Of a stretch of DNA of 64,000 nt, positions 25,501 through 28,500 are shown one piece after another; the stretch's first letter is position 1; the number at the start of each line of letters is the position of its first letter. A program made the position numbers. Source of the stretch: Escherichia coli (GTDB taxonomy: Bacteria > Pseudomonadota > Gammaproteobacteria > Enterobacterales > Enterobacteriaceae); the NCBI RefSeq assembly GCF_017348835.2, contig NZ_CP071375.1; one strand, 5' to 3'.

Positions 25501-28500
25501 AGGCTGTCAACGAGCTGTGGGAACTCAAAATAAATGGCGTCGTTGATAAAACTGGTCACACCTGGTTTCTGGCTGGCGAAGGTGAATCCCGGGTAACCGA
25601 AGAGCGGCCAGTAAAATCTGAAGCACAGGATATGCTGACCGGGGAGGTCGAACAAAAAGTTACCGCAGACATGATGATTGAGTTTATCGGTCAGGATGGG
25701 GCTAAAACGTGTGAGGAACTGGCGGGTAAGTTCGGTGTCAGTACTCGCAAGGTTGCTTCCACGCTGGCGGTGGTAACCGCAACGGGGCGGCTGGCACGCG
25801 TTAATCAGAACGGTAAATTTCGTTACTGCATGCCGGGCGATAATTTACCAGCAGAGCCGAAAGCCGCGCTGGTAACGGAAAGTGATGGTAAGGCCTTTCC
25901 TCAGCCAGCAGGTGCTGCGTTACCAGTCCGGGAAGCCGCAACACAGGAAGAAATTAAAACAGAAACTGTGGCGGACATTGTGCAGCCGTTGCCATCGTTT
26001 ACCGAAACGCAAGCAGATGAGCTGATTTTTCCGTCCCTTCGCAGGGCAAACCTGGCGCTGCGCAGGGCGAAAAGTGATGTTCAGAAGTGGGAGCGAGTCT
26101 GCGCCGCGCTGCGGGAGCTGAACAAGCACCGGGATATTGTTCGACAGATTACTGATTCTTCCCGCCGTGTTGTATCGGAAAAGTGATTGCCGGAGGCGCT
26201 TATGGCAAAAGTATTTACACAGGAAGAGCGGGAAAAAATTAAAGGGCAGGTTGTTGAGCTAGTACGCCGGAGTGGGCGCGAGACGTTACGGCAACTGGAA
26301 GCCAAGACAGGTGCGACAAGATATCTGATGAGCGTTCTTGCCAGAGAGCTGGTTGCCAGTGGCGATGTATACAACTCTGGTTACGGGTTATTCCCATCTG
26401 AACAGGCTCGTAAGGACTGGCAAAACGCCCGCAAAAAACTATCGAGGGCAAAACTGAAGAAACCGGTTGTGGTTGATCCTGACCTTATCTGGTCATTACC
26501 AGACGGAGAAATACGCCGCTATGACAGGCAATTGAACATAATTTGTAGTGAGTGCCGTAACAGTGAAGTGATGCAGCGAGTTTTGATATTTTACACAGGA
26601 GTAATGATGGAATAGTGAAAATAACATGAAACCTTTGGATTCTGGTGTTTCAGTGGATGGGAAAAGAGCAGATACATAGAAAATGAATAGCAATAATTCA
26701 CAGTCTGGATGTTGTTTGTATGCTTATAAAATGATCCTAGTATGCATTGCCGGAGTTGAATCAGCTCCAATGAAGAAACTGAGAGGAGTATTTAGAAGAT
26801 AGCTAAATGGATGTAATTATTAGTATCTAAAAAATAGTATTTTTGAAATGGGTCTAAGAACACAACAATGTACAAATGAGAAGTTATCTTTTAATATGTT
26901 CAAAGACCCATTAGGATTGATATCAGTTATGTTAGCTAGATTGATAAAGTGATTACATATTTTCTGTTATATGCTGAAATGAATAATGCTATTCCAGAGT
27001 GCAGCAGAGAAAGTCTCCTGATGATTGAGCTCTGGAAATTGTACAATAGAAAAATTACTGTATTTTTCTGTCAAAATATTTCTCAAAACAGATTCCGCTT
27101 TGATGGCTTCAGGATATAAAGATGCGGAGTAATCAAGGCTAAGATTTCCGTTAAGCAAGCATATACTTTTAGTGTGCTTTGATTCTGATATATCATCTTT
27201 AATTATCTTGATGATTCTTTCATTCTGCCATAGAAGTGATGGTGCAGATATATAATAATAGTTAAAGCATGAATTATTTTTTAAGCAATCAAGCACAAAA
27301 ATAGCACCTAGCGAGTGCCCCCATATACCGATTCTGGAACTGTTCGGAGCAATAGTACTAACCCATGGCATGATCTGAGTTAGTAATAATTCTCGGAAAG
27401 ACTGGCTTCCTCCACCAGTAAAGTAGATCCATGCTGGTTTAGAGTTATCAACAATAGCATTTTCACCATCAGGAGTATAATCGTAAGCACGGCGATGAAT
27501 GCTAAGGTTATTCCAAGATTCATAACCAAGTGTAACTAACACTGGTGGATTGGGTAGTGCATCAATAACAGGCAGAATATCAGAAATGTAATTGTTGGCA
27601 CTATTCCCATCAAGTATATAAAGAGTTGCATTATTTTTTTTAATGTTTTTTGGAGTAAAAATACATATTTTATATTTGGTGTCATGGTTAATTGAGTTAA
27701 ATATGCGTGTTTGACAATGAATGTCCATATGTTTAGTCATGCGTTCTCCCCATGAGCATTAAAGGATGCTTAAGATATGCTATGTCACTGATAAAAAATT
27801 TGTTGTGTGTGTTTAGTTATTTTATCTACCTCCATTATGATTTAAGACTGATATATGTTATCAGCAAAGGTACATCGTTATTATTTTACCTGTCAATACA
27901 TTTGATATTGATTATCGTTTACATCGCTTGCTTAGGAAATTGAAGGCAGGTAACTATCATGTCAATGAACTAACCCACAGTCTAACGTACTTCTTTCCCC
28001 AATCACCAACAACCAAATTCCTGTTATCACCATGAACCGCCCCGGAAATCCTGGAGACTAAACTCCCTGAGAAAGAGGTAAACAGGATGACTAAAAATAC
28101 TCGTTTTTCCCCCGAAGTCCGTCAGCGGGCGATTCGTATGGTTCTGGAAAGTCAGGATGAATATGACTCACAGTGGGCGGCAATTTGTTCCATTGCCCCA
28201 AAGATTGGCTGTACGCCGGAGACTCTGCGTGTCTGGGTTCGCCAGCATGAGCGGGATACCGGGAGTGGTGATGGTGGACTCACCACCGCTGAACGTCAGC
28301 GTCTGAAAGAGCTGGAACGTGAAAATCGTGAACTGCGCCGCAGTAACGATATCCTTCGCCAGGCTTCCGCTTATTTTGCGAAGGCGGAGTTCGACCGCCT
28401 CTGGAAAAAATAATGCCACTGCTGGATAAGCTGCGTGAGCAGTACGGGGTCGGACCGGTATGCAGCGAACTGCATATTGCCCCGTCAACGTATTACCATT

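Follow-up and report, generated by a model that had tools for sequence, protein, structure and literature searches.

A predicted leaderless IroE-like esterase carried as prophage cargo in Escherichia coli

The best described proteins related to the gene studied here are siderophore esterases. Full-length IroE, encoded in the iro cluster (iroBCDEN; PDB 2gzr/2gzs), carries an N-terminal export or anchor segment, and BesA (BES), the bacillibactin esterase of Bacillus (PDB 2qm0), acts in the cytoplasm. Ser189 and His287 of IroE form a catalytic dyad (PMC10515146). PfeE of Pseudomonas aeruginosa and Cee of Campylobacter are periplasmic and cut the ester backbone of enterobactin (PMC8001512). BesA is counted among the siderophore esterases that release iron, and Fes of E. 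coli and IroD are far more efficient than IroE on ferric enterobactin (PMC8891985). Here we describe a gene at positions 26967-27740 (minus strand) of a stretch of 64,000 nucleotides from Escherichia coli (assembly GCF_017348835.2, contig NZ_CP071375.1), hereafter called the window, which contains a lambdoid prophage integrated beside yccA. As judged from its sequence and modelled structure, the product is a divergent serine esterase of the IroE family. We see about an even chance that it serves as a cytoplasmic hydrolase of ester siderophores of the enterobactin type, delivered by the phage as a moron and acting as a second route beside Fes.

IroE is the best characterised match to the prophage esterase in both sequence and fold (template-modelling (TM) score about 0.8), and the two share the GHSxG serine, the C-terminal histidine, the aspartate of the LDGN motif, the arginine of the RxYDYTP motif and the lack of a triad acid. 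However, they are only about 28% identical, the pocket substitutions W170L and G241Q set the prophage protein apart, and its gene lies outside any siderophore cluster whereas iroE belongs to the iro cluster. The prophage esterase also lacks the N-terminal export or anchor segment that is found in 69 of 91 family members. PfeE (E=1.5e-11, TM 0.79) and Cee belong to the same fold and family, but their genes are located beside a receptor gene and are induced by enterobactin via a two-component system, whereas the prophage esterase is leaderless and stands alone. BES has the same fold (E=9e-13, TM 0.76), with a sequence similarity below that of IroE, and the prophage gene has no importer genes as neighbours and resides in a gamma-proteobacterial prophage. 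Fes (PDB 3c87), another alpha/beta-hydrolase, is matched more distantly (E about 4e-9). Its compartment is the one predicted for the prophage esterase and its reaction the one presumed, but it differs by an extra N-terminal lid domain, a full Ser-His-Glu triad and a chromosomal location in the ent/fep cluster.

The counterpart of the gene in E. coli Sakai is ECs1077 in prophage Sp4, annotated there as a hypothetical protein, and the counterpart prophage in EDL933 is CP-933M. The RefSeq entry of the protein, WP_000160654.1, is named alpha/beta hydrolase, and no paper on this esterase was found in the literature searched by accession, locus tags and family terms. The family and its leaderless members are already known; what is new is a deeply divergent, stand-alone and prophage-borne member in a defence and accessory hotspot of enterohaemorrhagic E. 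coli (EHEC). The points of which we are confident, taken jointly, are a single-gene cassette under selection, an IroE-type fold, an intact Ser-His machinery and the lack of an export signal.

Family, fold and active site

The open reading frame has 257 codons with an ATG start and contains the nucleophile elbow IGIWGHSLGA (G-H-S-L-G). An initial annotation of the window had described the same 257-residue frame with its WGHSLGA elbow and had proposed an alpha/beta-hydrolase with an esterase-family pattern. In a sequence search of the PDB, IroE (2gzr) was the top match with E=5e-26 over residues 8-253, and the next matches were Bacillus BES, Pseudomonas PfeE and fungal siderophore esterases. A hydrolase fold was also obtained in an AlphaFold model, which was built from an alignment of 94 sequences and reached a predicted local distance difference test (pLDDT) score of 91.5 and a predicted TM (pTM) score of 0.92, with confident placement from residue 7 on. 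The best 30 PDB matches of this model in Foldseek, at TM scores of 0.72-0.81, were all IroE-type siderophore esterases or structures annotated as IroE-like, IroE itself being matched with E=6e-20 and TM scores of 0.78/0.81. Sequence, model and structural matches thus sharpen the initial assignment to the IroE-type siderophore esterases. No IroE-type fold was found among the viral protein structures in BFVD, where the best TM score was 0.53, and the PHROGs match of the esterase is a family of unknown function.

When 1.84 billion cluster representatives were searched exhaustively, 998 relatives of the esterase were returned, none of which falls between about 33% and 87% identity. Because of this gap, the prophage esterase appears in sequence comparisons as an isolated branch that is almost confined to E. 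coli.

In the family alignment, Ser143 corresponds to Ser189 of IroE and His240 to His287. The nucleophilic serine is present in 90 of 91 homologues and the histidine in 89 of 91, and both are found in every allele of the prophage gene. Asp44 (in LDGN) and Arg84 and Asp87 (in RxYDYTP) are invariant in the 94 sequences, and altogether 22 of the 23 invariant or near-invariant family positions are retained, including D44, R84, D87, G141, H142, S143 and H240. We take D44 and R84 to be the equivalents of IroE Asp90 and Arg130, to which we assume the catalytic roles described by Larsen et al. 2006 apply. Position 201 is a serine in the prophage protein and a threonine in IroE, where 57 of the 91 homologues have the glutamate that serves as the triad acid, and the atypical layout of IroE is therefore common to both proteins. 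We infer that the prophage esterase works with a Ser-His dyad that lacks the usual triad acid, as IroE does, and Asp203, near position 201, may serve as an alternative acid.

Compartment, selection and expression signals

The prophage esterase has 22 residues ahead of the first conserved strand. They contain no hydrophobic stretch, and the hydropathy of 12-residue segments within the first 40 positions peaks at 0.0, which agrees with the initial remark that no signal peptide was obvious. Among the distant homologues, 73 of 91 have at least 45 residues ahead of this strand, 69 of these with a hydrophobic export segment, and 10 of the 91 are likewise leaderless. A decayed remnant of a leader was sought upstream of the gene in all three frames and none was found, the frames being full of stops. 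With neither an export signal nor an upstream leader remnant, the protein is predicted to be cytoplasmic.

The short N-terminus could also mean that the gene is decaying and non-functional, and represents what is left of a longer, exported IroE-like gene whose 5' end was lost when the phage captured it. The N-terminus is about 45 residues shorter than in most relatives, and frameshifted or truncated copies occur in a few strains (locus L029 and protein P0017). Nevertheless, we regard this as highly improbable. By alignment, the start lies 4 residues inside that of the crystallised leaderless IroE construct (query residue 8 against chain residue 12), the confident part of the model begins at residue 7, and no leader remnant precedes the gene. 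Moreover, there are three allele groups (100%, about 92% and about 90% amino-acid identity), each of exactly 257 codons, and the ratio of nonsynonymous to synonymous substitution rates (dN/dS) among them is 0.16-0.25. The differences between alleles fall mostly at third codon positions (18/9/44 at the first, second and third), the ribosome-binding site and the promoter are conserved, and no catalytic or family-invariant residue varies.

With differences of 18/9/44 by codon position and a dN/dS of 0.16, the frame is not a chance open reading frame. Intact copies of the esterase were found at 19 of 20 viral-contig and divergent-allele loci. Together with the dN/dS of 0.16-0.25 and the conservation of the promoter region, this indicates that the gene is functional and selectively maintained, and the idea of a decayed fragment, which had been raised for the frame at the outset, is at odds with these values and with the stops upstream. 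Frameshifted or N-terminally altered copies are seen in a minority of strains (positions 6001-6770 of L029; proteins P0017 and P0007), and the gene is therefore occasionally lost by decay despite overall purifying selection.

The coding sequence and the signals around it are as follows.

26967-27740, minus strand: coding sequence of the leaderless IroE-like serine esterase, 257 amino acids, with Ser143, His240, Asp44, Arg84 and Asp87 present
27746-27751, minus strand: Shine-Dalgarno sequence GGGGAG, separated by 5 nt from the ATG at 27740 and identical in all alleles
27741-27993, minus strand: conserved upstream regulatory region of about 253 bp
27890-27895, minus strand: perfect -35-like hexamer TTGACA, invariant in all alleles
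27904-27922, minus strand: candidate Fur-box-like site GTAAACGATAATCAATATC, agreeing with the consensus at 15 of 19 positions and, in the 90% allele group, at 14
27848-27864: palindrome CTGATA-N5-TATCAG, present in 23 of 23 esterase loci and at a single place in the window
26829-26912, minus strand: 3' hairpin and probable terminator, with arms at 26847-26862 and 26897-26912 followed by a U-rich run

The 253 bp upstream of the gene diverge by 13% between the allele groups, as compared to 26% of the synonymous sites in the gene (Fisher p about 0.001). A 95-bp core of this region, which was picked after the alignment was seen, is more conserved still, and it contains the TTGACA hexamer, the Fur-box-like site, the CTGATA-N5-TATCAG palindrome and a CATAAT hexamer. 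A weak -10 sequence, TACCTT, is located 18 nt downstream of TTGACA, and an alternative promoter, ATAACA-16-CATAAT, is placed at 27861-27834. The score of 15 of 19 at the Fur-like site was reached by 8 of 2000 composition-matched shuffles. The promoter palindrome was also looked for at the immunity operators of the prophage and is not present there. The 3' hairpin lies 55 nt past the stop codon and has a z-score of -3.4, with none of 200 shuffles folding as well, and it is probably a terminator between the two convergent genes.

The cargo cassette and its slot in the prophage

The GC content between about 26600 and 28000 is 0.31-0.38, compared to 0.51 for the whole window, and that of the esterase gene is 0.345 (0.28 at third codon positions). 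The gene is antisense to the rightward genes of the replication region:

23421-24641, rightward: O-like gene
24648-25334, rightward: DnaC-like gene
25416-26186, rightward: DUF1627 gene
26187-26615, rightward: DUF977 gene

Both the AT-richness and the antisense orientation had been recognised in the initial annotation, which read the gene as foreign cargo at the end of the replication region. The foreign origin is confirmed by the cassette boundaries described below, which are common to slots with other cargo. The position can be given more exactly, as a distinct variable hotspot in which anti-phage systems are often found.

At all 20 loci, the esterase is flanked by the DUF977/lygF gene on one side and by hokD on the other, even where the flanks are only 63-70% identical. 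The cassette boundaries were obtained by comparing the locus in EDL933, which is free of insertion sequence (IS) elements, with slots that hold five other types of cargo. On the left side, homology breaks within the last 10-40 bp of the DUF977 gene. On the right side, with four of the five other cargo types, homology is regained some 225-245 bp ahead of hokD. The slot with IetAS has no hokD, and there homology rejoins about 110 bp beyond it. These breaks delimit a cassette of about 1.5 kb, which in the window is split in two by an IS629 element:

26594-28033, no strand assigned: main part of the AT-rich cassette, with its left edge inside the 3' end of the DUF977 gene and its right side cut by IS629
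28034-29339, plus strand: IS629 copy, about 40 bp beyond the conserved promoter region and not part of the cassette
29340-29434, no strand assigned: displaced right end of the cassette, beyond IS629 and reaching into the hok/sok leader, where homology with slots of other cargo starts again

By these comparisons, the island stands on its own as a cargo cassette, or moron, with a length of about 1.5 kb, in a variable slot of Rac/Qin-like lambdoid prophages, and the esterase gene represents genuine foreign cargo of a clear enzyme class, with a putative biological role.

The anchor gene of the slot, DUF977/lygF, has about 6,670 occurrences across 4,139 genomes, and the esterase is found in about 7% of the slots. 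Twelve slots without the esterase were sampled, six from phages and six from genomes, with the following cargo.

Phage mEp460 (L006): PD-T7-1 (PADLOC E=4e-157), antisense and AT-rich
Phage vB_EcoS-683R6 (L009): IetA/IetS
Genomes L031 and L036: IetA/IetS
Genome L035 (E. coli 504211), 5195-7584: antisense pair of an unannotated 463-residue protein and an AbiH-family abortive-infection protein
Genome L034: QueH (5105-5770), one unknown gene and a KwaB-like gene
Genomes L032 and L033: QueH (5116-5781 and 5117-5782), annotated as epoxyqueuosine reductase
Phages HannyBb (L008) and PhiR42_1 (L010): methyltransferases
Phages Rac-SA53 (L007) and vB_EcoM-606R7 (L011): small unknown genes

The 463-residue protein and the AbiH-family protein possibly form an uncharacterised two-component defence system. 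PD-T7-1 is an anti-phage gene that has been validated by experiment (PMC9519451). No description of the lambdoid slot between DUF977/lygF and hok was found in that paper or in the other literature searched.

The content of the slot suggests that the esterase might instead be an anti-phage or superinfection-exclusion gene, with which the prophage shields the lysogen against rival phages. A direct effect is conceivable, through the cleavage of an ester-linked molecule that an infecting phage needs or that signals its presence. More speculatively, the effect could be indirect, if an altered cytoplasmic iron or enterobactin status lowers the expression of the Fur-controlled TonB-dependent receptors that many coliphages use. 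Recognised defence genes were found in 6 of the 12 sampled slots, namely PD-T7-1, IetA/IetS (in one phage and two genomes), the AbiH-family gene and the KwaB-like gene; methyltransferases were present in two others. The recombination boundaries of the esterase cassette are those of the other cargo, and the cassette is AT-rich and antisense like the PD-T7-1 and AbiH cargo; it consists of a single gene with its own promoter, is under purifying selection and is enriched in the prophage-rich genomes of EHEC. The comparison with PD-T7-1 is the closest, since the two are single genes with their own promoters, both AT-rich and antisense, in the same slot with the same boundaries. However, they are unrelated in sequence and fold, PD-T7-1 having no Pfam domain and the esterase no PADLOC match. 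None of the families in PADLOC-DB v2 (5027 models) matched the esterase at E<=1, and no defence system with an IroE fold was found in the literature searched. Furthermore, QueH, which is not a defence gene, occupies the slot in 3 of the 6 sampled genomes, so that location alone is weak evidence for defence, and the sample of 12 slots is small. A role in defence is, in our judgement, a serious alternative, although less likely than the hydrolysis of siderophores. That a siderophore-esterase fold was recruited as a single-gene determinant of prophage defence or exclusion, via an ester-linked metabolite or the down-regulation of receptors, we consider unlikely.

The 1.4-kb island is present in 470 of 5426 complete E. 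coli genomes (about 9%), with at least 99% identity in 457 of the 470 and 80-90% identity in 13, and in a spread sample of 30 the carriers were mostly O157:H7 and other EHEC. The whole window, IS elements included, is identical to the pig isolate PE164. Among deposited phage genomes there was no close copy, and the four weak protein matches were IroE-like genes in records that resemble bacterial contigs. The phage-collection records AGRM01000002.1, CAKLQH020000004.1 and CAKLQF020000002.1 are probably bacterial contigs, one being a 691-kb contig of Salmonella houtenae and the others records of 232 kb and 306 kb labelled 'Acinetobacter phage MD-2021a', with iroE-like genes. Similarly, the chromosomal prophage esterase is present in the 287-kb record NZ_CP124741.1, whose label is that of an EDL933 plasmid. 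Matches in these records should not be taken as plasmid- or phage-borne.

The left inverted repeat of IS629, TGAACCGCCCCGG, abuts the AT-rich island. The prophage contains two copies of this element in opposite orientation, at about 19.3-20.6 kb (minus strand) and at 28034-29339 (plus strand), each with an ALIL frameshift pseudoknot (20160-20276 and 28368-28484, respectively). The neighbourhood of the second copy, to which the initial annotation had drawn attention, is real, but it is peculiar to this strain background and not a general feature of the gene. The annotated loci of EDL933 and Sakai have no IS629 beside the esterase, and where the match was near full length (466 genomes), the alignment ends exactly at the IS junction in almost every case. 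The link to IS629 is therefore incidental, and IS629 as the element that brought in the gene was rejected, since most carriers lack it at this site. The first copy interrupts the ydfB region, and recombination between the two copies would invert the immunity and replication segment together with the esterase cassette.

Some other elements of the prophage were also observed. An IS481-family element is located at 29650-30744, with its transposase gene at 29614-30687 on the minus strand, about 11 bp upstream of the start of hokD (about 30753-30908). The sok RNA maps to 29489-29655 (Rfam match, 102 bits). The insertion separates the hok reading frame from the sok/mok leader, whereas EDL933 and Sakai are without it, and hok/sok is therefore probably disrupted in this strain. 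The best Fur-box-like sequence of the window, GAAAATGATAATAATTATC at 42001-42019, has 2 mismatches, a level at which chance would give no site. The lambda-type cos site GGGCGGCGACCTCGCGGGTTTTCGC follows some 30-35 bp downstream of it, ahead of the terminase genes, and the sequence may be a cos-associated AT-rich palindrome rather than an iron operator. The remaining features are:

18058-18109, minus strand: DicF small RNA
35490-35736: three transfer RNAs (Ile, Arg and Arg, as annotated in matching genomes)
35816-36006: small RNA STnc100, just upstream of the SASA-family gene
36229-38079: gene for a SASA-family (NanS-p-like) carbohydrate esterase of 616 amino acids

Proposed role of the prophage esterase

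If the esterase acts on siderophores, the steps would be as follows. Transcription would run from the conserved promoter that the gene itself carries, in the direction opposite to the early-right operon of the phage, and expression in the lysogen could therefore be independent of induction. As read from the sequence, translation starts at the ATG at 27740 behind the GGGGAG ribosome-binding site, and the product of 257 amino acids has, as shown by homology and the confident model, the IroE-type alpha/beta-hydrolase fold. Without the signal or anchor segment of most relatives, it would stay in the cytoplasm. There, Ser143, activated by His240, would attack the ester carbonyl, with Ser201 at the usual site of the glutamate and the invariant Asp44, Arg84 and Asp87 lining the active site, as the alignment suggests. 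By analogy with the family, the likeliest substrates would be catecholate siderophores with an ester backbone, such as enterobactin-type trilactones or their linear forms, in the apo or ferric state. The enzyme would thus open enterobactin-type siderophores in the cytoplasm alongside Fes and may affect the release of iron or the processing of siderophores.

Two relatives provide a genomic context that fits such a substrate. The relative P0020 (29-39% identity, depending on the aligned stretch; leader present) has as its neighbours EntB- and EntA-like genes and those for two TonB-dependent receptors and a FecCD importer. The leaderless relative P0100 has a FecCD/ABC/binding-protein importer about 2-6 kb away.

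In addition to the defence genes found in the slot, several observations weigh against a role in siderophore hydrolysis. The identity of the esterase to any relative outside its own alleles is about 28-33%, and with the gap that extends up to about 87%, the transfer of a substrate by homology is risky. The family match to the Pfam profile PF00756, a check proposed in the initial annotation, was obtained but is weak and sub-threshold (E=0.013). No NCBIfam family matched at E<=1, whereas plasmid-borne iroE genes are named 'catecholate siderophore esterase IroE'. Residues adjacent to the pocket depart from the family at W170L, G241Q and Y144L. The gene stands alone in the prophage with no siderophore genes beside it, and 3 of the 5 close relatives examined, a Pantoea protein, P0026 and P0032, are orphans without an iron context. 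The Fur-like site, although suggestive, is located on the upstream side of the -35 hexamer rather than within the promoter and drops to 14 of 19 positions in one allele group, and a strict search for Fur boxes (at most 3 mismatches) found none near the esterase gene. Finally, E. coli already has Fes, so the added benefit of a second enzyme is unclear.

Several of these points would also fit a cytoplasmic serine esterase that acts on an ester other than a siderophore, such as a metabolite from the host or the diet, an ester of a microcin or an antibiotic, or an acylated intermediate, and that provides a generic fitness benefit as a moron. This would be in line with the deep divergence of the isolated branch, with the substitutions at the conserved pocket-adjacent positions W170, G241 and Y144, and with the absence of iron genes from the neighbourhood. 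Moreover, several of the nearest relatives are orphans beside efflux or ABC transporters or genes of a sugar phosphotransferase system. However, every characterised match in sequence or fold is a siderophore esterase, 22 of the 23 family-conserved positions are retained, and P0020 and P0100 are located in clear siderophore loci. We consider a non-siderophore substrate rather doubtful.

Expression data may bear on the regulation of the prophage esterase. In a microarray study, 'Z1341, unknown protein of CP-933M' was up together with exbB and chuU on host epithelia (PMC2654852, Cluster C). Given the EDL933 anchors Z1326 (DicB-like) and Z1344 (RusA), the hydrolase is one of the two genes Z1340 and Z1341. 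Should it be Z1341, the microarray result would be the first evidence for its expression and would fit iron-responsive control.

The gene is near-identical in about 9% of complete E. coli genomes, including those of Sakai and EDL933, and is still annotated as 'hypothetical' or 'alpha/beta hydrolase'. To our knowledge, EHEC are without salmochelin, aerobactin and yersiniabactin. The slot, which exchanges cassettes of PD-T7-1, IetAS, AbiH-family, KwaB-like, QueH and methyltransferase genes with boundaries that stay fixed, offers a convenient hunting ground for accessory and defence genes. If the prophage esterase acts in the competition between phages, it would represent a new kind of defence effector and, if this holds true, would link iron metabolism to phage immunity. 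If it instead cleaves enterobactin-type siderophores in the cytoplasm, it would be an unrecognised, phage-delivered addition to the iron handling of these pathogens.

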